From: Candidatus Poribacteria bacterium
Lineage (GTDB): Bacteria > Poribacteria > WGA-4E > WGA-3G
NCBI GenBank assembly: GCA_965197475.1
Contig: CBDANF010000003.1
Location: 192,001 to 256,000 of the forward strand
Direction of reading: 5' to 3'
Length of the DNA: 64,000 bases
Position numbers and translations under genes: made by a program. Positions 9,759 to 24,850 of this stretch are shown piece after piece (positions within the stretch are counted from its first letter, which is position 1; the number at the start of each line of letters is the position of its first letter). The notes beneath the pieces were generated by a model. That model was not told where the DNA came from and did not search any database. It worked only from the letters and a program-made list of their open reading frames with translations.

Positions 9759-10979
9759 GTGCGAATAGTTTTTTCTAAATCAAGTTTTGCTTTTGTCATC
9801 GTAATGCTAACCTTCGTTATGGGCATAGCGGGCAGTTCATCCGCAAAAACACAAGAGAGCATTTTCACTGTTATAGAGACAGAAGATCCGGAATATCCCA
9901 CAATTGCGGCTTCTATCCAACTACCGTTTCGCGTCAGTCCAAACAACACTGTCGTCCTTGCCGGAAAACACGCGTATGTCACAACCGAAAAGCATTTGCA
10001 CGTCATTGATGTTTCTATTCCGCAACGGCCCTCTTATCTGACATCTCTCGCGTTTCGTAGTAAAATTGGCAATGCCTTTGTCTCTGGACACTATGTCATT
10101 GTAGCGGATGCTAAAAAGTTTCATTTCGTTGATGTTTCTGAGCCATCGCACCCCGTAATTCAATCTTCCATGCATCTACCCCATCAACACGCAATCAAAG
10201 ACCTTGATGTCCTTGGATCTTATCTTTATGTGATGGGCGCGAATGACTACCTGTACACTTTTTCCATAGGTGGTGCACAAGCACAACTTGTCAAGGCAGT
10301 TAAAATGTCAAGACGCTGGTGGTTGTTGAGCTTGAAAGCCGGAAGTCCTGAGGTGAAACAGGTTCTGCTTTCGACTTCAGACCCTCTTCCCGCAGGTCTC
10401 TCAAAACCACTCCTGTCTCGACGTGGGTTTTTACAACTCAGCAGCAGACAGGAAAAAGTCCGCGCAACGTCTGATTTTCTGGCAGTGGAGAGTCTGACAA
10501 ACCCAACGTGTGATCTGCTGATTTACGATGCGCGCAGAATTAATGATAGTCAGTCAAGTTTCTATGTTTGGTACTTTAACGTACAGTACCACTGTCTTAG
10601 GCATCTTTCCGCGACAGGGCACAAGACACTCACTCGCAGAAAACCGACAATTGCGTATGCTGTCGGAAACACCGGAGAGATGCAGCAAATTGCCCTCGAT
10701 CAGCCAAGTGAGACGATAGATGTCAACAACAAACGATTAGTGGGACCCGTCACAGATTTTCAATTTTCGAAGGATCTGCTTTACGTAACCAACGCAAAAG
10801 GATTCTTTTCTATTCACCGTATTCCTAAAGCGGGAAACCTTACAATAGAGATTCCCACGGAAGAAGACAGGGATAGGGTTATATCCGTCACACCGATTCA
10901 GGCAAATCATCCCATTAGCATTGCTGTTGGGAAACATTACGTCTGTGTGTTGGCTGCACCGAAAGATTCACGAAGATAA
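9759..10979 (+). CDS. secreted LVIVD-repeat beta-propeller-like protein
   Basis: Signal peptide; LHVIDVSIP and FHFVDVSEP repeats. Confidence 0.7.
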   Translation: MRIVFSKSSFAFVIVMLTFVMGIAGSSSAKTQESIFTVIETEDPEYPTIAASIQLPFRVSPNNTVVLAGKHAYVTTEKHLHVIDVSIPQRPSYLTSLAFRSKIGNAFVSGHYVIVADAKKFHFVDVSEPSHPVIQSSMHLPHQHAIKDLDVLGSYLYVMGANDYLYTFSIGGAQAQLVKAVKMSRRWWLLSLKAGSPEVKQVLLSTSDPLPAGLSKPLLSRRGFLQLSSRQEKVRATSDFLAVESLTNPTCDLLIYDARRINDSQSSFYVWYFNVQYHCLRHLSATGHKTLTRRKPTIAYAVGNTGEMQQIALDQPSETIDVNNKRLVGPVTDFQFSKDLLYVTNAKGFFSIHRIPKAGNLTIEIPTEEDRDRVISVTPIQANHPISIAVGKHYVCVLAAPKDSRR

Positions 10980-11041
10980 TAACCTATAATAATTAACATC
11001 CGTTGATAGTGCCATTTGGTTTCTAAAAATGCTAAAATATT

Positions 11042-11070
11042 TTGACATGAAAGAGAGAATATGCTATAAT
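11042..11070 (+). promoter_or_regulatory. guaB promoter
   Basis: TTGACA-N17-TATAAT with extended -10 TG. Confidence 0.75.
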
Positions 11071-11299
11071 TTATTATAATTGGCGATACGTGTTTTTAGG
11101 ACAACATTAGCGAGCCTTTTCACCCACCTCAATCCGCATTATAGTAGATTTTAGAATTACTTGGACATTGTTATCGGTCCAGTTGGGAAACAGTTCCTAC
11201 CGCATATTTTGTAGCACAAACTTTTAGTTTGTGTCGTCCTTGCGCAAACTGAAAGTGGACGCTACAGCAGTGTCCAGATAATTACAGATTTTACTATAA

Positions 11300-12817
<1,518 letters not shown>

Positions 12818-12857
12818 ACTATTGAGACTCAGTAAGTCAAGCAAAGGGAGAAAAACG

Positions 12858-13961
12858 ATGAAAATCCGTATTGAAATCCTCACAACTTTACTATTGACGA
12901 CCGTTACTCTGCTCGCTGGCTGCTCTGGCTGCGGACAGAAAACCGCCCCCGAACACGCAGACCCTTATAACCAAGCAGAACACGGACCCGTCGCGGCGAA
13001 TAGCCGAAAGCCCGTAAAACTAACCATTGTTGAACCGAGTTTTGAGAGACTGATAGAACAGTTCAAAGCAGATGTCACTGAAAATAAGGGGGACCCAGAG
13101 ATGCTCAAACGCAAAAGAAAAGCAATTGCCAACCCCGATATACTGTGGGATGGCATCGGATTTGAGGTGCCCCCCACACTAAATTTCGATGAAATCCCAA
13201 GACTGCCGGGCTACAATCCAACACGCGATAAGATAAAAGTCCGCTCTTATTCTGAAAAAGGAAAACCTATACACGGGGTCTATGATCATGACAAAGAAGT
13301 GTATCCTTTTGCGGGCAAAGTTATCTACAAAACAAAAGATCAAGAGGAGAGGTTGGATGCTGTACGGCAAAACTGGAGGCATTTGAATCCAAATTCCGAC
13401 CCAGATGATACTAACTACTATCGAAAACGTGCTCCGATTGTGTATGAGGGAATAGATACACTCATTGCTGCAAAACATCTGAGTCAAGCGTTTAGCCCTG
13501 CTAAAAAAGCTCTTGGCGTTGAATATGCGGAGCGTGCAATACGTGAAAATCCGAACTCTGTTGAAGCGATGCGTATTTGGGTCAAATGCCATCCTGAAGA
13601 TCAAAAGATTGAGGCATACCAACAGCTGCTTTCAAAGTTCCCCAACGATGCGTTTGCTCACGAGCAAATCGCCGGCTACTACTACCGCGAAGAAGATACG
13701 GTTTCCGCCCTGGACCACATGCTGAAGGCTTGTCTGTTAGATAGTCGTATCGCGAAAACGAATGACTTATTAGCCAAATGTTATTTCAAACTCAGTGAAT
13801 GGGAGAAAGCCGTTGCTGCGTATCAGGGCATGGATTATTTTGTCAGTCCGAATTTTCTCTTTGAGAGTCCTGACAAAATAACTAAAGCCAAAGATGAGGT
13901 GCATAAGCAGCGAAAAGGGTATTCAGTTATAGAATTAACACAAGAAGGATATGACAAATGA
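12858..13961 (+). CDS. TPR-like lipoprotein, cassette A1
   Basis: Lipobox LLAGC, helical TPR-like C-terminal half; RBS GGGAG. Confidence 0.85.
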   Translation: MKIRIEILTTLLLTTVTLLAGCSGCGQKTAPEHADPYNQAEHGPVAANSRKPVKLTIVEPSFERLIEQFKADVTENKGDPEMLKRKRKAIANPDILWDGIGFEVPPTLNFDEIPRLPGYNPTRDKIKVRSYSEKGKPIHGVYDHDKEVYPFAGKVIYKTKDQEERLDAVRQNWRHLNPNSDPDDTNYYRKRAPIVYEGIDTLIAAKHLSQAFSPAKKALGVEYAERAIRENPNSVEAMRIWVKCHPEDQKIEAYQQLLSKFPNDAFAHEQIAGYYYREEDTVSALDHMLKACLLDSRIAKTNDLLAKCYFKLSEWEKAVAAYQGMDYFVSPNFLFESPDKITKAKDEVHKQRKGYSVIELTQEGYDK

Positions 13962-14101
13962 AATATCGCATTTCTGTTTTGACATTGTTTAGTGTGCTGA
14001 ATCCGTCCGCTGCGGATGGTCCACCGAGTGTTTCTATAGAGTCAGCGAATTTGGATGCGTATAATGGGTGGTTACCGAGAAAGCCATCCGCACGATATTG
14101 A
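13958..14101 (+). pseudogene. 5' stub of a secreted-protein gene fused out of frame to the guaB tail
   Basis: ATGA overlap with A1; MKYRISVLTLFSVL...VSIESANLDAYNGWLP resembles VCIEP..FNxWLP of 15312 and 19173. Confidence 0.7.
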
Positions 14102-14190
14102 TATTACGGAGGAAGCACCGAACTATACGGTTGCTAACCTTGCTACATAAACTGTTGAGACTCAGCAAGTCAAGCAAAAGGAGAAAAACA

Positions 14191-15300
14191 ATGGAACTTC
14201 GTATAGAAAAGTTCTTAACTTTATTTATGATCGCGATTATATTCCTCGCGGGTTGTTCGGGGTGTGCACAAAAAAACGCTCTAAAAGGGATTGAACCGAC
14301 CAAGGATTACAACGAACAATCTAAATACGGACCGGTCGCAGCGAACACGCGCAAACAGGCAAAACTAAAGCCTTTCCTTGAACCGAGTTTTGAGAACCTT
14401 ATAGAACAGTTCAAAGCCGATGTCAAAGCCAACCGCGGTGACCCTGAAGTCCTCGCTCGCAAAAAACAGGCGATAAAGAACCCTAATTTGCTATGGCGAC
14501 CTTCATTTCGAGTCCCGAAAAAAAACAGGCAAAATCCGAGAACTTATCCTGAATATAATCCCTCTGCCGACGAGATCAGAATCCTAACCCATAATAAAAA
14601 AGGGGAACCATTACGCGCCAGATATTTCGATCATCCAGGTGTTCCTAACGGTCTTGAGATTGAATTCACAGGCAAAGCCTATTACCTCACGAAAGAACAG
14701 GAAGAAAGAATGAAATTAGTTTTACATTCAGACGATCTTCCACAAGATGAGCGACAACGTGAATATTATAAAATTATGTTTGAGGGTATAAATACGTTTA
14801 CAGCTGCAAAGTATTTGAGCAAAGAGACTTCCAGTATTGCAGAAACCATAGGTCTTGAATACGCTGAACGTGCCATGCGCGAACACCCAAACTCTCTTGA
14901 AGCTATGCATCTTTGGGCTAAATGCGTTCCATGGGAACCTATAGAAAATAAAAGAGATGCGTATGAAAAGTTATTGACGAAGTTTCCTAACGATGCCTCA
15001 GCACATTCTATACTTGGTTTCATATATTGGTCTCGTCTGGACTCTCCTGAGTTAGCCATCCCGCATTACCAAAAATCTATTCAACTTGATAGTCGTGGCG
15101 AAGCTGGCAAAAAGCATTGGTTAGCTTTCTGTTATGAGAAACTTGGAGAATATGAGAAAGCGGTCGCAGTCTATCAGAGCATCTCTGTAGTAGACACATA
15201 CGGTCCTCGTGGTTATATGATCCCTATGTCATTAAATTACGTACAAGACGTGGTATATAAACAACGAACAGGTCGTTCCTTTTATGACTTAGACGATTAG
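14191..15300 (+). CDS. TPR-like lipoprotein, cassette B1
   Basis: Lipobox FLAGC, GPVAAN..EPSFENLIEQFKADV shared with A1, TPR-like C-terminus. Confidence 0.85.
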   Translation: MELRIEKFLTLFMIAIIFLAGCSGCAQKNALKGIEPTKDYNEQSKYGPVAANTRKQAKLKPFLEPSFENLIEQFKADVKANRGDPEVLARKKQAIKNPNLLWRPSFRVPKKNRQNPRTYPEYNPSADEIRILTHNKKGEPLRARYFDHPGVPNGLEIEFTGKAYYLTKEQEERMKLVLHSDDLPQDERQREYYKIMFEGINTFTAAKYLSKETSSIAETIGLEYAERAMREHPNSLEAMHLWAKCVPWEPIENKRDAYEKLLTKFPNDASAHSILGFIYWSRLDSPELAIPHYQKSIQLDSRGEAGKKHWLAFCYEKLGEYEKAVAVYQSISVVDTYGPRGYMIPMSLNYVQDVVYKQRTGRSFYDLDD

Positions 15301-15311
15301 GAGGGTATTGA

Positions 15312-15758
15312 ATGAAAAAATACTATCTCACAATTTTACTTTTCACATTACTCCCGTTTGCACACGCACAAAACGTCTGTATAGAACCAATGTGGGACAC
15401 GTTTAATCAGTGGTTGCCTGAAGATGGGGACACGGTCACTTTTCTTGTGACCGTCTCGGAGGCAAGGTCCAAAGGGTCGATTGTATTAAATCTGACCAAT
15501 GTATCTACTTGGGAAGGGACATGCATGAACAAAGGGACAGGCGACGATGCTGATCTATACTTTACCAGAACAGATCAGGTATTAGCGGGTAGGATTCGTT
15601 CTGCTATGGGATATTGTGGCACGCCAGATATTGAGTCGTTACGCAGAGATGTCCAATTTGTCCGTATGTCAAGCAGCGGTTACAGAGAAAGCCATCCGCA
15701 CGATATTGATATTACGGAGGAAGCACCGAACTATACGGTCGCTAACCTGAACACATAA
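15312..15758 (+). pseudogene. 5' stub of a secreted-protein gene fused in frame to the last ~58 codons of guaB
   Basis: Signal peptide ...AHA, then [22 protein letters not shown]...ANLNT matching the GuaB C-terminus. Confidence 0.85.
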
Positions 15759-15798
15759 ATTGTTGAGACTCAGTAAGTCAAGCAAAGGGAGAAAACCG

Positions 15799-16897
15799 AT
15801 GAAAATCCGTATTGAAATCCTCACAACTTTACTATTGACGACCGTTACTCTGCTCGCTGGCTGCTCTGGCTGCGGACAGAAAACCGCCCCCGAACACGCA
15901 GACCCTTATAACCAAGCAGAACACGGACCCGTCGCGGCGAATAGCCGAAAGCCCGTAAAACTAACCATTGTTGAACCGAGTTTTGAGAGACTGATAGAAC
16001 AGTTCAAAGCAGATGTCACTGAAAATAAGGGGGACCCAGAGATGCTCAAACGCAAAAGAAAAGCAATTGCCAACCCCGATATACTGTGGGATGGCATCGG
16101 ATTTGAGGTGCCCCCCACACTAAATTTCGATGAAATCCCAAGACCGCCGGGCTACAATCCGACACGCGACGAGATAGTCATCCGCTCTCCTTTTGAAAGA
16201 GGTAAACCTATACGCGGGGTCTATCATCCCTGTGGAACATGACAAAGAAATATATCCTTTCGCTGGAAAAATTATCTACATCACAAAAGAGCAAAAGGAA
16301 AGGAAGGATGCTGCGCGCCAAAACTGGCATAATGCGAATCCGAACTCAAGAGCGGATGTTGACTATTACCGAGAACAGTATGCGATTACATTTGAAGGAA
16401 TAGACACACTCACAGCAGCAAAATATTTGAGTCAATTCAGTGATCCTAATCATCCCAGCACAAAAATTATCGGCATTGAATATGCAGCGCGTGCGATGCG
16501 TGAGCATCCGAACTCTGTTGAAGCGATGCGTATTTGGGTCAAATGCCATCCTGAAGATCAAAAGATTGAGGCATACCAACAGCTGCTTTCAAAGTTCCCC
16601 AACGATGCGTTTGCTCACGAGCAAATCGCCGACTACTACTACCGCGAAGAAGATACGGTTTTCGCCCTGGACCACATGCTGAAGGCTTGTCAGTTAGATA
16701 GTCGTATCGCGAAAACGAATGACTTATTAGCCAAATGTTATTTCAAACTCAGTGAATGGGAGAAAGCCGTTGCTGCGTATCAGGGCATGGATTATTTTGT
16801 CAGTCCGAATTTTCTCTTTGAGAGTCCTGACAAAATAACTAAAGCCAAAGATGAGGTGCATAAGCAGCGAAAAGGGTATTCAGTTATAGAATTATAG
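15799..16897 (+). CDS. TPR-like lipoprotein, cassette A2 (frameshift near 16228; last codons cut by IS630)
   Basis: Near-identical arms to A1 with divergent middle; ORFs 15760..16242 and 16193..16897. Confidence 0.8.
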
Positions 16898-17801
16898 TAA
16901 ATCCCGTAATTACTTATACACTTTTATAATATCATCAATAGAAGTCTGAGCATTATATTGACGTATCCGCTTGATGTTGGCGAAATCCTTCTCAATCGGA
17001 TTCAACTCCGGTGAATACGGCGGTAAAAACAACAAACTCGCACCGCAATCCCGGATCAATGCTGCCGTCTGTGAACCTTTGTGGAAAGACGCATTATCCA
17101 TAATCACAACATGGCTATCGTCAAGCAATGGACACAACATTTCCGAAAGCCAACTGTTGAAGGCGATCACATCGCAACTGCCCTTGAAAAGCACAGGTGC
17201 TGTGAAACATCCATCAAGCCGTGCCGCAATCAGCGTCGTGGTGGTATACCGATGGCTTGGCACTTTATCTTCAACACGGACACCTTTCGGGCATAAGCAT
17301 ACCGACGGAAAGTGGTTTCAGTGAAACCACTTTCGTCAAGATAAACCGGTTTTTTGCCATGCTCCTGTGTCTCTTGTTGAAGTGCCGAAAGATACTCTTG
17401 GCGTTTTATCGGACACTGTTCTTTGTAGGTCGTTGTCTTTTTTTTCGCGTAATATTGAGTTTTGAGAAGGCATAAAAGATGCCGTTTGTTGAAACACCGA
17501 AGTGTTTGGCACGTTCGGCGAGTGTGCTATCGGGAAAATCGGCAACATGTTATTGAAGCGCATCATAATCAATGTGTCGGGGCCCTTTGGGACCCGGCTT
17601 CTCATAGGCAAAGGGGTTTTCTGCTTCTAACCAGTTATAGATCGTCCTTCTTGAGACACCGAAGGTGCGTTCTGCGGCGGCTTTACTGCCACCATTATTG
17701 ATGAAATCAAGCACGCTTTTGCGTCCATCTGTTGAATATGCCATAATCATAAAGGCTAACATAAATCACAGAAAATGTAAACTTATTTTCAGGATCTACT
17801 A
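16895..17801 (-). mobile_element. IS630-family element (HTH and DDE ORFs, frameshifted)
   Basis: TIRs TAGTAAATCCCG / TAGTAGATCCTG, duplicated TA (16893-4, 17802-3), MDNASFH and LPPYSPELNPIE motifs; empty site visible in the A1 copy. Confidence 0.92.
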
Positions 17802-17823
17802 TAAGACAAGAAGGATATGACAA

Positions 17824-17967
17824 ATGAAATATCGCATTTCTGTTTTGACATTGTTTAGTGTGCTGAATCCGTCCGCTGCGGATGGTCCACCGAGTGTTTC
17901 TATAGAGTCAGCGAATTTGGATGCGTATAATGGGTGGTTACCGAGAAAGCCACCCTCACGATATTGA
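17824..17967 (+). pseudogene. second copy of the MKYRISV... 5' stub fused to the guaB tail
   Basis: Near-identical to 13958..14101. Confidence 0.7.
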
Positions 17968-18056
17968 TATTACGGAGGAAGCACCGAACTATACGGTTGC
18001 TAACCTTGCTACATAAACTGTTGAGACTCAGCAAGTCAAGCAAAAGGAGAAAAACA

Positions 18057-19088
18057 ATGGAACTTCGTATAGAAAAGTTCTTAACTTTATTTATGATCGC
18101 GATTATATTCCTCGCGGGTTGTTCGGGGTGTGCACAAAAAAACGCTCTAAAAGGGATTGAACCGACCAAGGATTACAAAGAACAATCAAAATACGGACCG
18201 ATCGCAGCGAACAGTCGCAAACCGGCAAAACTGCCCCCGTTCCCCGAACCGAGTTTCGAAAACCTGATAGAACAGTTCAAAGCGGATGTCGCAGCGAACC
18301 GTGGTAATCCGGGAGCATTGGAACGCAAACGAAAAGCGATTGCTAATCCCAATATTTTAGATTGGCCCTTCTTTGTCTCTGCTGGTGATTACAAAAAAGG
18401 GGAACAACCACTGTCTAAATTATACAGATATGAGACTATCACTATCAAAACAACAGCGGAACAAGAGAAAAGACTGGATGCCTTAAGGTCAGAGGAGCTC
18501 CCATCTGATGTACACAAACGAAAAAGAAACGAGATTTATTTTGGGGGTGTTGATACCCTTACCGCTGCAAAGTATTTTATGACGCGTGGCAGTAGAAATG
18601 CCTCCACCTATGGGGTTGAATATGCCGAGCATGCCATGCGCGAAAATCCAAATTCCGTTGAAGCTATGCACGTCTGGGCGAGATGCAGCAGCAACACTAA
18701 GGACAAAGAAAAGGGAATTGCGGTATTCCGCAAGATGCTGTCCAAGTTCCCGAACGCTGCCGCAGCCCACATTGGACTCGCACAGAATCTCTTTTATCAG
18801 GCTCTGAAGGTTCAAAGGGAGTTTGGTGCTGGTTCTCATATAAATCTTGTGGAAGAAGCACTTCACCACACACAGACAGCGATACAACTTGACAGCCGCA
18901 TCCCACGGTATAACTACTTATTAGCGCGGTGTTATTTTGAACTGGGAGAATGGGAAAAGACGCTTATTGTCTACCATGGAATGCCTTCTATTGGTATGGG
19001 AGCTGCTTTTAATTTGACATTTCAGAGAGCTCATGGAAATCTCGCGAAACAAAGGGGTGAATATTCTCTCTTTAGAGGGACTGAATGA
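18057..19088 (+). CDS. TPR-like lipoprotein, cassette B2
   Basis: N-terminus nearly identical to B1 (FLAGC), remainder divergent with TPR-like helices. Confidence 0.85.
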   Translation: MELRIEKFLTLFMIAIIFLAGCSGCAQKNALKGIEPTKDYKEQSKYGPIAANSRKPAKLPPFPEPSFENLIEQFKADVAANRGNPGALERKRKAIANPNILDWPFFVSAGDYKKGEQPLSKLYRYETITIKTTAEQEKRLDALRSEELPSDVHKRKRNEIYFGGVDTLTAAKYFMTRGSRNASTYGVEYAEHAMRENPNSVEAMHVWARCSSNTKDKEKGIAVFRKMLSKFPNAAAAHIGLAQNLFYQALKVQREFGAGSHINLVEEALHHTQTAIQLDSRIPRYNYLLARCYFELGEWEKTLIVYHGMPSIGMGAAFNLTFQRAHGNLAKQRGEYSLFRGTE

Positions 19089-19172: not shown

Positions 19173-19482
19173 ATGAAAAATTATTATCTCACTATTTTAT
19201 TTTTACTGTTTACATCACTCCCGTTTGCCCACGCACAAAACGTCTGTATAGAACCGTTAAATAAAACAGAGTTTAATGCGTGGCTACCTGAAGATGGGGA
19301 CACGGTCACTTTTCTTGTGACCGTCGCAGGTGCCCAATCCACAGGTTCCATCGAGTTAAATCTTACCAATGTATCTACTTGGGAAGGGACATGCATGAAC
19401 AAAGGGACAGGCAACGATGCTGATCTATACTTTACCAGAACAGATCAGGTATTAGCGGGTAGGATTCGTTCTGCTATGGGAT
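19173..19482 (+). pseudogene. 5' stub of a secreted-protein gene fused to the guaB tail, cut by IS3
   Basis: Paralog of 15312 with the same RTDQV/LAGRIRSAMG junction. Confidence 0.8.
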
Positions 19483-19561
19483 TGTACTGCCACCGGAAAT
19501 TCGGGCCGCTCTCTAAGACAAGATTATGGTATAATATCCATCTCCTTGAAAGGAGTATCCG

Positions 19562-19852
19562 ATGGCGAAACGAAAACGAAGAAACTTCACCCCCGAGTTT
19601 AAAGCCGAAGTTGTTCTTGAGGCTCTCAGCGTTGAAAGTTCCCAAGCAGAAGTGTGTCGGCGACATAACCTCATCGATGAACAACTTTCAAAGTGGAAGC
19701 GACAGCTTCTTGAAAAAGCGGCGACCCTCTTTGAACCCGCTGATAAACAGTCTGATGCCTCTGCGGAGCGGATCGCCCAACTTGAGCAACTCGTTGGGCG
19801 GTTGACCTTGGCACTTGACATCCAAAAAAAAGCCTCAACTTACTTGAGTTAG
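19562..19852 (+). CDS. IS3 transposase OrfA (HTH)
   Basis: RRNFTPEFKAEVVLE HTH_Tnp_1 pattern. Confidence 0.9.
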   Translation: MAKRKRRNFTPEFKAEVVLEALSVESSQAEVCRRHNLIDEQLSKWKRQLLEKAATLFEPADKQSDASAERIAQLEQLVGRLTLALDIQKKASTYLS

Positions 19853-19857
19853 CCTCG

Positions 19858-20688
19858 ATGGAGCAGCGAGAAATGGTTACGGCATTACGGACAGACTTTT
19901 CGGTTCGGCAGATATGTGAGACACTCGGTTTCAACCGAAGCAACCTCTATTATCACTCCAAGCAGGCCCCGTGTGAAGCGGGCCTCCAGGATGAAATAGA
20001 GACGTTATCTTTGCTATATCCAACATACGGATATAGGCGTCCCACACAGTTGTTGGTGCGTAACGGATACACCATCGGGTATAAACGTGTTGCCCGATTG
20101 ATGAAGTCCGCCAACCTCTCGGTTTCTGTCAAGCGTGTCTGTCAAACCACGACATCCGTTGCGGGTGTGCGTCCCTGGAGCAATCGCCTTGAAAACCTTG
20201 ATGTCTCCCGATGTAATCAGGTCTGGGTGGGCGATATTACCTACGTCCGCCTCAAAGGACACTTTATCTATGTTTGTCTGCTCATGGATGTCTTCACTCG
20301 CATGATCAGAGGGTGGCATATCAGTCAACACTTGACGCAATCTCTGACGTTGAAACCCTTGGAGACAGCATTATGTCAAAGTGTCCCAGAGATCCATCAT
20401 TCTGATCAAGGCGTTCAATATCTTTCAAATGCGTCCATCTCACTGCTTAGGCATCATGGGATTGAGATTTCAGTCGCCCGGAGAGGGTGTCCTTGGGAGA
20501 ACGGATATGCTGAAAGACTTATCCGCACGCTCAAGGAAGAAGAAGTTCATCTCAATGACTATGAGGACATCCACGAAGCAAGAACCCGCATTGGGCATTT
20601 TATTACACAAGTGTATAATCACAAACGCCCTCACTCTGCGTTAGGGTATTTGACACCTGTGGAATTTGAGCAAAAAAACTTGTCTTAA
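19858..20688 (+). CDS. IS3 transposase OrfB (DDE integrase core)
   Basis: WVGDITY, HHSDQGVQY, ENGYAER, YNHKRPHSALGY. Confidence 0.93.
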   Translation: MEQREMVTALRTDFSVRQICETLGFNRSNLYYHSKQAPCEAGLQDEIETLSLLYPTYGYRRPTQLLVRNGYTIGYKRVARLMKSANLSVSVKRVCQTTTSVAGVRPWSNRLENLDVSRCNQVWVGDITYVRLKGHFIYVCLLMDVFTRMIRGWHISQHLTQSLTLKPLETALCQSVPEIHHSDQGVQYLSNASISLLRHHGIEISVARRGCPWENGYAERLIRTLKEEEVHLNDYEDIHEARTRIGHFITQVYNHKRPHSALGYLTPVEFEQKNLS

Positions 20689-20727
20689 CTTTGCTAAATT
20701 TTGGTCTGAATAAACGGTAGCACTTCA

Positions 20728-21017: not shown

Positions 21018-22243
21018 TTATTGCTCCGAGTCAATTAAAGCCTGATAGGTAAACCTCCTGAATTGCCCTTGAAAAGGATAACGGTTATTGAGAATCTGCG
21101 TCATCAGAATTCCTATGAGTTCTTTTTCGGGGTCAACCCAAAAGTTAGTAGCAGCTAAACCACCCCCACTGAGTGATCCATGCGACCGTTTATTTTTTAC
21201 GTTATTCTCACGCGTAACAACATGGAATCCAAATCCGAAAGCCCCTCCTTCTCTGTGATATTGTTGATGTGGATAACGCATCAGTTCAACGGTCTTGGTC
21301 TTTAAAATGTGCACACCTTCCAATTCACCACCATTGAGTAACATCTGACAGAAACGGAGGTAATCCGCAGCAGTAGAAACAAGCCCACCACCACCAGAAG
21401 GAAGAAAGTGACGTTATCGGTTGCAAGCGGAGGTTTTCCGACAAGTTTTAGTCCACCTTCTTCAGTAGGTCTATATATAGCCGCAAATCGTTCTACTTTT
21501 GTTTGTGGCACCGAAAACCCAGTATCTATCATGCCGAGTGGTTTAAAAATCTTCGTCTGTAAAAATTCTTCAAACGGCATTTCCGAAACTACCTCTACAA
21601 GATAACCGAGAACATCCGTAGAAACACCGTATTTCCATCTTTTACCGGGTTCGAAAACAAGCGGGATATCACTAAGTTTCTCTACCTTCTCTGCTAACGT
21701 TGAATCACGTTCAAATACTTTCAATTTGGCGTAAAGTTTATCAATAGGTCTGTCGCCCCACCCGTAAGTCAATCCGGAAGTATGCGTGAGTAGATGCTTG
21801 ATCGTCATCTTATTCTTAGCGTCATGTGTTTCTGTCTGCTCATTGTTAAAAACCTTCATGTCTTTGAATGCGGGAATATAGTTTTCAACAGGATCATCAA
21901 GTTTAATATACCCCTCATCGTAGAGTATCATCACAGCAACGCTGGTAATCGGTTTCGACATTGAATAGATACGGAATATCGTATCCGCTTCAACCGGTTT
22001 TTTATTTTCAACATCTCGCATGCCGATGGTCTCAAAATGTGCAATTTTCCCTTTCCTCGCGATGACAGTAAGGAATCCTGGTAGTTGTCCTTTGTCGACG
22101 TAGCCTTGCAGGACCAGACGGATACGTTCCAGACGTTCGGAAGAAACACCAACATCTTCCGGCTCTGCCATCGGGAGTCCCTGTGCAAATGCGAGTGCAG
22201 TGATACAAAATAGCAGTAAAAGTAAGCACGTTAATCGTTTCAA
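21018..22243 (-). CDS. serine hydrolase, beta-lactamase class C family (frameshift near 21390)
   Basis: FRIYSMSK (SxxK), LLTHTSGL, WKYG; signal peptide. Confidence 0.88.
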
Positions 22244-23543: not shown

Positions 23544-24850
23544 CTATGCCTGCGGGGGTGTTAGTAGCATTACGGCGATGTCTTCTGGGATTTAACGTTA
23601 TGTTTCTGCTCAAAGTCGGCAATGCTATCATAATGCCCAAAGAATTCAATTATTATACCTTCTTTTGCATCCTTTGTCTCCACGAAGTCCGATCTAAATT
23701 TTTCCCATTCGTGAAGGTTTAGCCAAATCCAACACCGATTACGATATGCATTTGCCTATTCAGCATTTATTTTTATTGCTTTGTCATAGTTTTTGATTGC
23801 AAGTTCAACTTTTCCTTTTTTAAGATAAGCTAAACCAAGGTTATTATGTGCCTCAGCTAAATTAGGATTAAATTGTATCGCTTTCTTAAAATATTTAATC
23901 GCACGATCATACTGACCTTTTTTGCCGTAACTTTTACCGAGATTTGTGTAGGTTTTAGCATCATTGGGCTTGAGTCGTATTGCTTTATTCAAATCCTTGA
24001 TGGCACAGTTTAACCTGCCCTTATTGTTGTAAGCATTTCCACGATTAGTATAAGCTTTGGCTAAATCCGGATCCAGTTGTATCGCTTTAGTATAGTTCTT
24101 GAAAGCATGGCCAACATGACTTTTCATGTCATAAGCAACGCCGCGATTGTAATATACCTCAGCATCGTTGGGGTTGAGTTGTATTGATCTGTTAAAATCT
24201 TTGATAGCAAGATCATGTTCACCCTTTACACCGTAAGCAACACCGCGATAATTATAAGCTCCAGCATTTTTCGGGTTCAGTTCAATTGCACGGGAATAAG
24301 CTGCAATTGCTCTATCAAATTGCTTTAGCATCATCATGAAATTACCCTTTTCTACTATCCAATAAGACAATATCTTAATTTCTTCCGATGCTATAGTAGG
24401 TGAAGGTTGTAGCTGAGATTGCATTTCTTCAACGACTTTTCGAATACCATCTACTACACTTTTCCAACCTTTACTTTCTGGCTGCCATTCGTTAATTGGC
24501 TTGACTCCTTCAGGAAGTGCCTGAAATTCGCTGAGTTGGTGGTTTTCCCAATCGCAATGCTCAAGGATAATCGGAATCACTCTTATATTTGGATTTAACG
24601 CAGCAGTCAATTCCTTATTGCAATTTTCAGAAGCAAGACTATACGGACAAGTAAGGTAGAGCAGAATGTCCGAATCGGCAAGGTTGGTGAAAATTGCATC
24701 CCGCCATTTGTCTCCGGGTAAAATTTCGTTGTCGTGCCAGACATCAATTAAACCATTTTGCTTCATTACAGCAAGGTAAGTAATTAATTTGTCCTTTGCT
24801 TCGGTATTTTTATGCGCGTAGGTAATGAAAACCTTTAATCCTTTACTCAT
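23544..24850 (-). CDS. TIR domain + TPR protein (stop at 23756 and frameshifts in the tail)
   Basis: KVFITYAH TIR start, ENCNKEL, multiple AYNNRG-type TPRs; frame continues past TAG toward DFEQKHNV..PEDIAVML. Confidence 0.82.

Follow-up and report, generated by a model that had tools for sequence, protein, structure and literature searches.

We analyzed a 64,000-nucleotide stretch of DNA from Candidatus Poribacteria (contig CBDANF010000003.1, positions 192,001 to 256,000; hereafter, the window). In the window, guaB, the gene for IMP dehydrogenase (IMPDH), is followed by an array of lipoprotein genes that are headed by copies of guaB's own 3' end. These copies, which we call orphan tails, differ from guaB and from each other mostly at silent sites. 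Given this silent-site pattern, it is probable that the tails originated in functional guaB genes from related lineages and that recombination moved them. We also favor, with some confidence, the view that the locus is an integrase-free displacement hot spot, where lipoprotein modules are swapped and stacked between Poribacteria lineages and the 3' end of guaB is the homologous anchor.

The window corresponds to C3:192001-256000 of G000, a Candidatus Poribacteria metagenome-assembled genome in three contigs. Our genus sample has 40 Candidatus Poribacteria genomes, and our outgroup sample has 16 genomes from three other families of the order. All of the genomes compared are metagenome-assembled; one of them, G003, is a single-contig assembly.

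guaB is followed by an array of its own 3' ends

G000 contains one full guaB, nine orphan tails plus a scrap, and 11 lipoprotein genes, and 10 of these 11 genes are headed by a tail or by the native guaB. The window's part of the array has these features (nt, nucleotides; aa, amino acids; ORF, open reading frame; IS, insertion sequence):

11306..12817, + strand: guaB, encoding IMP dehydrogenase, 503 aa (ORF; the sole full-length copy in the genome by blastn)
12818..12857, + strand: spacer of 40 nt, from the guaB stop to lipoprotein 1, with the ribosome-binding site GGGAG (from alignments)
12858..13961, + strand: lipoprotein 1, 367 aa, lipobox LAGC, C-terminal TPR (ORF)
13958..14069, + strand: stub K, the first 37 codons of a metzincin-type gene, with a signal peptide and ending in NGW; it joins guaB at GGTTACC
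14070..14150, + strand: orphan guaB tail A, 81 nt, guaB frame intact, ends LAT* (alignment)
14191..15300, + strand: lipoprotein 2, 369 aa, TPR (98.9% aa identity to the G003 cassette)
15312..15581, + strand: stub B, signal peptide and metzincin-type N-terminal domain, 90 codons (tblastn to a 738-aa HExxHxxGxxH protein)
15582..15758, + strand: orphan guaB tail B, 177 nt, frame intact, ends LNT* (alignment)
15799..16897, + strand: lipoprotein 3, with a frameshift near 16233; the IS630-like insertion interrupts its 3' end (seen as two ORFs, 15760..16242 and 16193..16897)
16898..17797, - strand: IS630-family element with a broken transposase, inserted at a TA where lipoprotein 3 ends (Pfam DDE_3 and HTH_Tnp_IS630)
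17824..17935, + strand: another copy of stub K, with 99% identity to the one at 13958..14069 (ORF, alignment)
17936..18016, + strand: orphan guaB tail C, 81 nt, frame intact, ends LAT* (alignment)
18057..19088, + strand: lipoprotein 4, 343 aa, TPR (83% aa identity to the lipoprotein beside the native guaB of G005)
19173..19482, + strand: second type-B stub plus the first 25 nt of a 177-type tail, at 19458-19482 (repeat alignment)
19483..20702, + strand: IS3-family element that closes the window's part of the array (Pfam HTH_Tnp_1 and rve)

The part of guaB that is copied in the orphan tails is its last 233 nt (12585-12817). The spacer and its ribosome-binding site recur 3' of every orphan tail, and a lipoprotein gene follows. 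A 38-nt core of the guaB tail has four matches in the window (at 12761, 14094, 15702, and 17960), versus none in 100 shuffles. The 25-nt guaB scrap at 19458-19482 is the start of a fourth copy, which is cut by the IS3 element at 19483. (The Pfam matches in the IS630 element are on ORFs 16910..17263 and 17550..17762, and the boundaries of this element were read from the sequence.)

The stubs that lie 5' of the tails are N-terminal pieces of a large secreted HExxHxxGxxH protein, and they carry its signal peptide. An earlier note, which was made from the letters of the window alone, had stated that the 81-nt copies are out of frame with the upstream stub. We confirmed this: the stub ORFs at 13958..14101 and 17824..17967 run into the 81-nt tails in another frame and terminate inside them. 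Stub B is fused in frame with tail B, so that the ORF at 15312..15758 reads the 177-nt tail in the guaB frame. The product of this chimeric ORF would have 148 aa, with a signal peptide, an N-terminal domain of the metzincin type, and IMPDH's last 59 residues. It matches Pfam's IMPDH family (E = 2e-9), and annotation pipelines may call it IMP dehydrogenase. Two similar in-frame fusions of a stub to IMPDH are found in L001, the array locus on contig C2 of G000 (10973-11428 and 13990-14514).

We also noticed some other features of the genes in this region. At the frameshift in lipoprotein 3 (~16233), contigs from sequencing runs X4 and X6 are one base shorter, while run X1 agrees with the window, and the break seems to be private to this population. 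Directly 5' of the guaB start is a 162-nt repeat (11139-11300) with 30 matches in G000. All eight of the matches listed are at least 99% identical, the repeat is also multi-copy in G003, G005, G006, and G013, and it looks like a miniature inverted-repeat transposable element. Farther upstream is a perfect sigma-70 consensus, TTGACA-17-TATAAT, with a TG extension (11042-11070), which lies 236 nt 5' of guaB, with the repeat in between.

The distal half of the array is on another contig

Six of G000's nine tails are on contig C2. By blastn, these have lengths of 229, 219, 167, 120, 71, and 71 nt, and their joints are at 229, 229, 177, 120, 81, and 81 nt from the guaB stop. The tails on C2 head seven further lipoprotein genes. 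This array ends with a complete 738-aa metzincin-like gene, a 420-aa FN3 gene, a Fer4 (nuoI-like) gene, and an MT-A70 gene. In five relatives (G003, G013, G052, G055, and G049), it is the Fer4/MT-A70 pair that closes the guaB locus. From this, we conclude that the array on C2 belongs to this locus as its distal half. On the other side, a MocA-type oxidoreductase is found 5' of guaB in the window, in G003, and in G055. It appears that an original single locus was split at or near the IS3 element. G000 contains 28 full-length copies of this IS3-family element (by blastn), and none of its copies in G000 adjoins the C2 array. In G003 and G006, copies of the IS3 element are 94-97% identical, which is far above the 80-88% of the flanking genes.

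The simple unit of guaB, lipoprotein, metzincin-like gene, and FN3 gene is seen, for example, in G041, and this arrangement is presumably ancestral. In G041, a second copy of guaB's first 31 nt, along with 60 nt of upstream sequence, sits downstream of the lipoprotein/metzincin-like/FN3 unit (L034, 6739-6769). This is a scar left by duplication at the opposite end of guaB. Within the C2 array, 420-aa FN3 genes are present at both ends (L001 2257-3519 and 16217-17479), and their protein sequences are 100% identical. The sequences just 5' of the two FN3 genes, which are the 3' ends of the 738-aa and 626-aa genes, also have a stretch in common (from translations of the ORFs). Together, these similarities point to a duplication inside the C2 array that would be very recent.

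The tails differ from guaB mostly at silent sites

The two 81-nt copies in the window differ from each other by CAT CCG versus CAC CCT, and both differ from the native guaB by ACT>ACG, GTC>GTT, and CTG AAC>CTT GCT. The 177-nt copy has GCA>GCT, TGC>TGT, CGA>CGT, CGA>AGA, and ACT>ACG, as well as TCT>CCA and changes beside the joint. Every one of the codon differences that the earlier note listed for these copies is present. From these differences, the note argued that the tails are not decaying duplicates, and a formal count agrees.

If a copy decays neutrally, then 0.23 of its variant codons are expected to be synonymous. As a stricter test, we placed half of the divergence on a selected lineage that accepts silent changes only. 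For the four alleles in the window (native guaB and tails A, B, and C), we counted by hand from alignments that 9 of 12 variant codons are synonymous (P = 2e-4 for neutral decay; P = 9e-3 if half of the divergence was selected). For all ten alleles in G000, 27 of 34 variant codons are synonymous (P = 5e-12 or P = 7e-7, respectively), and the count becomes 64 of 78 when two native genes and the G003 and G013 tails are included. Neutral decay of a local duplicate is rejected.

We also compared each tail to the guaB of the same genome by the Nei-Gojobori method, which gives the proportions of synonymous sites (pS) and non-synonymous sites (pN) that differ. Across the tails, pS is 0.13-0.67 and pN is 0-0.07. 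The tails are like working genes in this respect: for the guaB genes of G000 and G003, pS is 0.51 and pN is 0.034. The longest orphan tail that we found, from G055 (L028 15583-16101), has 473 nt, or 157 codons, and its frame is open. This tail has 27 synonymous and 2 non-synonymous differences from its own guaB (P = 5e-10). The pattern is also seen if orphan tails are compared only to each other: among 21 of them, the mean pairwise differences at codon positions 1, 2, and 3 are 0.049, 0.019, and 0.237. An open guaB frame is kept in 21 of 26 tails. The other 5 of 26 have a frameshift or a stop, so decay does occur in tails that are left alone.

The two amino-acid replacements spelled out above fall on residues that vary among working alleles. 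At residue 459, 34 of 39 native alleles have P, while G000 and one other have the rare state, S. At residue 501, the native guaB of G020 has A. Some of the change must lie on the native lineage, as 8 of the 9 orphan tails in G000 share ACG at a codon that is ACT in the native gene.

The earlier note proposed that the cassettes came in with the guaB end of a donor. Copies with the same joint trace back to one founding event, as orphans, and nevertheless they have diverged mostly at silent sites. The ratio of synonymous to non-synonymous differences is 24:3 for the 229 class (two copies in G000 and one in G013), 8:1 for the 103 class, 5:2 for the 81 class, 5:1 for the 233 pair, and 7:4 for the 177 pair. 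A single capture is therefore not enough, and exchange between tails and working guaB ends must go on. To judge from these ratios, the tails must keep being overwritten by working guaB ends, or must serve in turn as working ends themselves.

Cassettes and their tails are shared between species

The horizontal part of that proposal did find support. A block of 2,595 nt at L022, the locus with the second array of G003 (10978-13572), corresponds to 12737-15331 in the window, with 97.5% identity. From one end to the other, the block covers the final 81 nt of guaB, lipoprotein 1, stub K, tail A, lipoprotein 2, and the first part of stub B. In contrast, guaB and the syntenic flanks of the two genomes are 80-88% identical. 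In the block, pS between G000 and G003 is just 0.009 for lipoprotein 2 and 0.092 for lipoprotein 1. For the flanks, pS is 0.50 for guaB, 0.53 for MocA, 0.35 for Fer4, and 0.54 for MT-A70. Because pS in the block is 4 to 60 times below that of the flanks, transfer between lineages is needed. The comparison thus gives direct sequence evidence that cassettes move, with their tails, between species-level lineages.

The shared block begins exactly at the 81-class joint. Upstream of this point is the body of guaB in G000 and stub K in G003. G003's orphan tail, 81b, is 2 silent nucleotides from the live guaB end of G000 and 11 nucleotides from G003's own. In other words, because the block starts at the 81-class joint and the two copies are only 2 nucleotides apart, a tail allele that is live in G000 is orphaned in G003. 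The earlier note had suggested checking if a donor allele is natively linked to the same type of lipoprotein. We found such a linkage once, and in the reverse direction: the orphan tail and lipoprotein 1 of G003 correspond to the native end of G000 with the same lipoprotein.

Some tails are mosaic. Before guaB position 1432, each of the two 233-nt tails in G003 has 9 differences to G003's guaB and 19 to G000's, while after this position, they have 10-11 differences to G003's and just 1-2 to G000's (P = 0.0025 and P = 0.0012, Fisher exact tests). Over its last 78 nt, one of these tails is identical to G000's live allele. Similarly, the two 229-nt tails in G000 differ only at position 1458 and in the last codons (an LN versus an LA ending), which implies crossovers inside the tail. 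More broadly, if we rank the native alleles by their similarity to the tails of G003, G050, and G052, the genome's own allele comes in 16th to 25th, and alleles from other species are closer. And while the lipoproteins of adjacent cassettes are just 46-60% identical, their tails differ by a few silent sites.

Spread of the tails and the structure of the joints

Orphan tails are present in 7 of the 40 genomes from the genus (G000, G003, G013, G049, G050, G052, and G055), and G007 has a 29-nt scrap of guaB. Outside of the family, 14 of the 16 genomes had a match, and none of them had more than one.

We identified at least 10 classes of joints, with tail lengths of 33, 41, 81, 103, 120, 159, 174/177, 229, 233, and 473 nt. 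For the 81 and 177 classes, for the 120 class in G000, and for the 159 class in G055, the tail is joined to a truncated metzincin-like gene; for the 103 class, it is joined to an FN3-type gene. For the 229 class, the partner is the first 135 nt of the nuoI-like flank gene along with ~130 nt of unique filler. (As a repeat element, the filler can be rejected: only its own two copies were found.) The nuoI-like stub differs from the resident gene at 3 of 135 nt, and joining the 5' 135 nt of this gene to guaB is the expected result if the whole segment between the flanks is duplicated or circularized.

At the 81-class joint, about 7 of 8 nt are the same in both parents (based on a longer parent-like stub in G013). 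Overall, the joints look like illegitimate joins at microhomology. The same joint can be present in different species: the 81 class is found in both G000 and G003, and the 229 class is found in G000, G013, and G050. In the 174-nt tail of G013, the partner sequence of the 229 class is joined 55 nt further into guaB, and we read this tail as a probable deletion derivative of the 229 class.

The cargo and its expression

The lipoproteins have a lipobox and C-terminal TPR repeats, and are sometimes accompanied by a metzincin-like protein and an FN3 protein. A structural model of lipoprotein 1 has a mean pLDDT of 77.8, and its Foldseek matches are designed or generic TPR proteins only. The metzincin-like neighbor has the motif HExxHxxGxxH and marginal matches to Reprolysin_4 and serralysin. 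No toxin or immunity family was matched among the cargo, its NCBIfam matches were far below the cut-offs, and the ESM Atlas gave one match at 0.80, which is under the threshold of 0.9 for more than a lead. The ratio of non-synonymous to synonymous substitution rates (dN/dS) is 0.2-0.5 for the lipoproteins, versus 0.04-0.08 for the flanks, which suggests relaxed or diversifying pressure and no more. Our guess is that the lipoproteins pair, at the surface or in the periplasm, with the secreted metzincin-like protein beside them, and are under diversifying pressure. When we predicted the complex of the metzincin-like protein (residues 30-640) with the adjacent lipoprotein (residues 26-357), the score was 0.00, which counts neither way.

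In the window, there is no terminator-like site on the + strand between the cassettes. None of the window's 20 promoter-like sites (versus a mean of 16.1 in shuffles) lies in the tails. Read-through transcription of the array is possible. Small contigs from an RNA library (run X18), with depths of 2.7-3.3, lie on lipoprotein 1, stub B, and lipoprotein 3, and are at most a weak hint of transcription.

Downstream of the array, the window includes two other genes of note. At 23756-24850 (- strand) is a 364-aa protein, possibly related to defense, whose N-terminal domain is TIR_2 and which also has six TPR repeats. At 21018-22243 (- strand), a gene with the beta-lactamase fold lies in two overlapping ORFs (21302..22243 and 21018..21344) and was probably split by a frameshift.

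A proposed mechanism

In the displacement that we propose, the module is a TPR lipoprotein, with or without the metzincin-like and FN3 proteins. Incoming DNA would bring a new module behind a guaB 3' end. Recombination within the last 33-473 nt of guaB would keep guaB whole and would push the former end and its module downstream, as an orphan. The founding joints might have formed when the far end of an incoming or duplicated segment was illegitimately joined inside the last few hundred bases of guaB. The right-hand partner would be a truncated metzincin, FN3, or nuoI-like gene, joined at a short microhomology. Later, homologous recombination in the tails could shift cassettes among arrays, among genomes, and into or out of the position that is attached to guaB. 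Circular intermediates are possible, as was proposed for Rhs tips. Every tail would periodically be the working end of an essential gene, or else be overwritten by one. If tails cycle through guaB, then only silent or tolerated C-terminal changes would survive, which explains the synonymous excess. We infer the order of these events, their dependence on RecA, any circular intermediates, and the route of DNA transfer.

The earlier note identified the tail as the guaB end of a donor. An origin from a working allele holds up, but the data fit a donor's end or a displaced resident end alike. Two aspects of the array fit, although they do not prove, a stacking of the newest module next to the anchor: the metzincin-like and FN3 genes are complete in the most distal module only, and the block that is proximal to guaB has near-zero divergence from another species.

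Several observations weigh against the displacement of modules between lineages. First, we did not find a donor for G000's tails. When we scored 38 native alleles, all 9 of the tails were nearest to G000's own, at a distance of 4-11%, so the donors, if any, would be unsampled close relatives. (We also scanned metagenomes for a degenerate tail pattern. This yielded three contigs, all with native-type guaB, and none of them was among the six closest alleles for any tail.) Second, across 300 pairs from 25 native genes, the distance for the guaB body and the distance for the tail are correlated (0.74), and just 1 of the 300 pairs has a tail distance that is less than half of the body distance. Therefore, with this sampling, we see no sign that the live end is often replaced. 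Third, a recombinase might be acting in trans; several joint positions recur in different species, with the same partner sequence. Fourth, no circle and no variant with a gained or lost cassette was seen in the read data, which are short Logan contigs that break at repeats and do not cross the whole array. The only joint at the scale of the array (15674 to 18043, from run X1) extends for just 26 nt on the shorter of its two sides and could be an artifact of repeats. Stretches of the guaB body that run X6 leaves uncovered do not count as evidence here. Finally, G000 has a contamination rating of 6.97%.

We also put forward a broader idea, although we doubt it. The guaB 3' end might be an integrase-free attachment site that is policed by selection, and might give sponge Poribacteria a self-cleaning handle for a shared repertoire of lipoproteins. 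The lipoproteins would perhaps be partners of metzincin-FN3 proteins that are secreted and polymorphic, or protection from them, and the string of tails would be an ordered log of acquisitions. A cassette with a decayed tail could not re-attach without killing guaB, so the pool of cassettes would carry a self-cleaning recombination handle.

Alternative explanations

The cassettes might instead be remnants of integrative elements, with tails that are att sites and that supplied a replacement end for guaB. The site-specific recombinase would act in trans or have been lost. A displaced 3' end with silent differences is indeed the pattern of icd and icdC (PMC13626634), and both the joint and its partner recur across species for the 229 and 81 classes. 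Also, element-borne tails that restore guaB would face purifying selection, which fits the silent divergence within joint classes. However, we searched 14 ORFs from the window and L001 and 43 flanking ORFs (from 9 loci in 7 genomes) using Pfam, and found no tyrosine or serine recombinase. These scans found only DDE transposases (IS630, IS3, and an element resembling IS4 at the distal end of the second array in G003). An att site should have a constant core, but tails come in at least 10 lengths between 33 and 473 nt. Cassettes can be as small as ~1.3 kb, with only a lipoprotein gene and a stub. And the partners at the joints are truncated neighboring genes (metzincin, FN3, or nuoI-like), as expected for illegitimate joints and not for the ends of elements. 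We consider this explanation improbable.

We give similarly little credence to a purely intragenomic origin, with no horizontal transfer, in which the segment next to guaB was duplicated in tandem and then underwent gene conversion by the resident guaB or rotated with it, which would keep the orphans clean. This would account for the fact that the native allele of the same genome is the nearest one for all of G000's tails and for G055's 473-nt tail, for the close match of the nuoI-like stub to the resident gene, and for joints that resemble the scars of tandem duplications. But gene conversion predicts near-identity, and pS to the native allele of the same genome is 0.13-0.67, with differences that are spread along the tail. 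An intragenomic origin is also at odds with the tails of G003, G050, and G052, which are nearer to the alleles of other species, with the low pS of the 2.6-kb shared block, and with adjacent lipoproteins that are so much more diverged than their tails.

It is quite unlikely that the tails are kept for a function of their own, either as a translated C-terminal peptide of IMPDH or as a DNA or RNA element for expression of the lipoproteins. In G000, the 177-, 167-, and 120-nt tails are in frame with a stub ORF that has a signal peptide, and the tail and spacer are always directly before the start of a lipoprotein. But the 81-nt tails are out of frame with the stub and have no start codon in the guaB frame, while the 229-nt tails, by our reading of the sequence, have a TGA three codons before the part that derives from guaB. 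A periodicity of three bases in the guaB frame is unexpected if the tail acts as RNA or DNA, the window has no match to an Rfam family, the tails lack promoter-like sites, and 5 of 26 tails have decayed.

Two other explanations can be set aside. If the tails were plain local duplicates in neutral decay, with the pattern due to chance or to change on the native lineage only, then the small numbers for the window (12 variant codons) and the ACT/ACG change, which lies partly on the native lineage, would be no surprise, but this is refuted by the counts for all of G000's alleles and for G055 (27 of 29) and by the same periodicity among the orphans. It is just as implausible that an assembler strung together strain variants of one locus: G000 is a three-contig assembly with some contamination, and short-read contigs break at the repeats, but a collapse of strains cannot create joints between stubs and tails, the same joints and order of the block are seen in independently assembled genomes, including the single contig of G003, and contigs from other runs cover individual cassettes at 95-99.9%.

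Comparison to known systems

In streptococci, integrative and conjugative elements, integrative and mobilizable elements, and cis-mobilizable elements accrete in tandem at the 3' ends of housekeeping genes, with copies of the gene's end as boundaries. These elements are bounded by the att sites of a site-specific recombinase. Stacking at the 3' end of a housekeeping gene is similar at guaB, but no recombinase was found in the ORFs that we scanned at this locus. In integrons, single-gene cassettes are ordered behind one promoter-proximal entry point, and newer cassettes are expected to be nearest to the entry. The boundaries of the guaB cassettes are repeats of the guaB tail and spacer, with varying lengths. 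The repeat is a piece of a coding gene (attC sites were not searched for), and the scanned ORFs include no IntI-type integrase, that is, no match to Phage_integrase.

We compared the guaB array to three published systems. The e14 prophage inserts in icd and provides a replacement 3' end, and the displaced icdC pseudogene differs mostly at silent sites (PMC13626634). Recombination between icd and icdC yields working chimeras (PMC13626634). Both e14 and the guaB array have displaced the 3' end of an essential metabolic gene, with mainly silent differences, but e14 has its own integrase, a fixed att site, and one displaced end (PMC13626634). At guaB, we found no recombinase gene in the scanned ORFs, and there are many tail lengths and up to 9 displaced ends per genome.

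For the C-terminal ends of Rhs proteins, displacement by homologous recombination was proposed, possibly via circles and without an integrase (Jackson et al. 2009, PMC2935791). As at guaB, Rhs loci have a conserved anchor gene, the acquired alternatives carry a fragment of the anchor, and the old end is pushed into a string of fragments (PMC2935791). The anchor here is instead the gene for a housekeeping enzyme, whose product is unchanged: only silent sites and the last residues vary. Also, the cargo is a separate downstream gene rather than a new C-terminal domain, and any role as a toxin or an immunity protein is putative at most.

In Vibrio cholerae's type VI secretion system (T6SS), homology-facilitated illegitimate recombination was proposed for clusters of effector and immunity genes (Kirchberger et al. 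2017, PMC5361080). There, modules gained by horizontal transfer are inserted beside a conserved upstream region, older genes are shifted back, and the orphans resemble working modules from other strains, much as at guaB (PMC5361080). However, that anchor lies within the T6SS cluster, and immunity genes are retained with a known selective logic (PMC5361080). In Poribacteria, it is TPR lipoproteins that accumulate, and the truncated metzincin-like partner is downstream of the retained gene.

What these arrays have in common with guaB is an intact anchor that is followed by its own 3' fragments, each heading a module. Orphan modules are near-identical to modules that are attached to the anchor elsewhere, as for G003 versus G000, and the fragments vary in length, with no dedicated recombinase in the ORFs that were scanned. 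In the reading that we favor, the guaB locus is a displacement array of this kind, on a housekeeping anchor, integrase-free, and in an uncultivated group of symbionts. We found no published account of the guaB-tail locus in the literature on Poribacteria with IMP dehydrogenase or with lipoproteins, TPR, or metalloproteases.

Implications

The guaB array provides a countable record of gene exchange between species-level lineages of uncultivated sponge symbionts. It also implies that the displacement mechanism of polymorphic toxin loci can anchor on an ordinary gene for an essential enzyme. In remnants that are non-coding, the silent-site signature separates displaced working ends from decaying duplicates, and this signature could be used genome-wide to locate other recombination hot spots. 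Finally, the fast-turning lipoproteins, metzincin-like proteins, and FN3 proteins are candidates for interactions between symbiont and host, or between symbionts.

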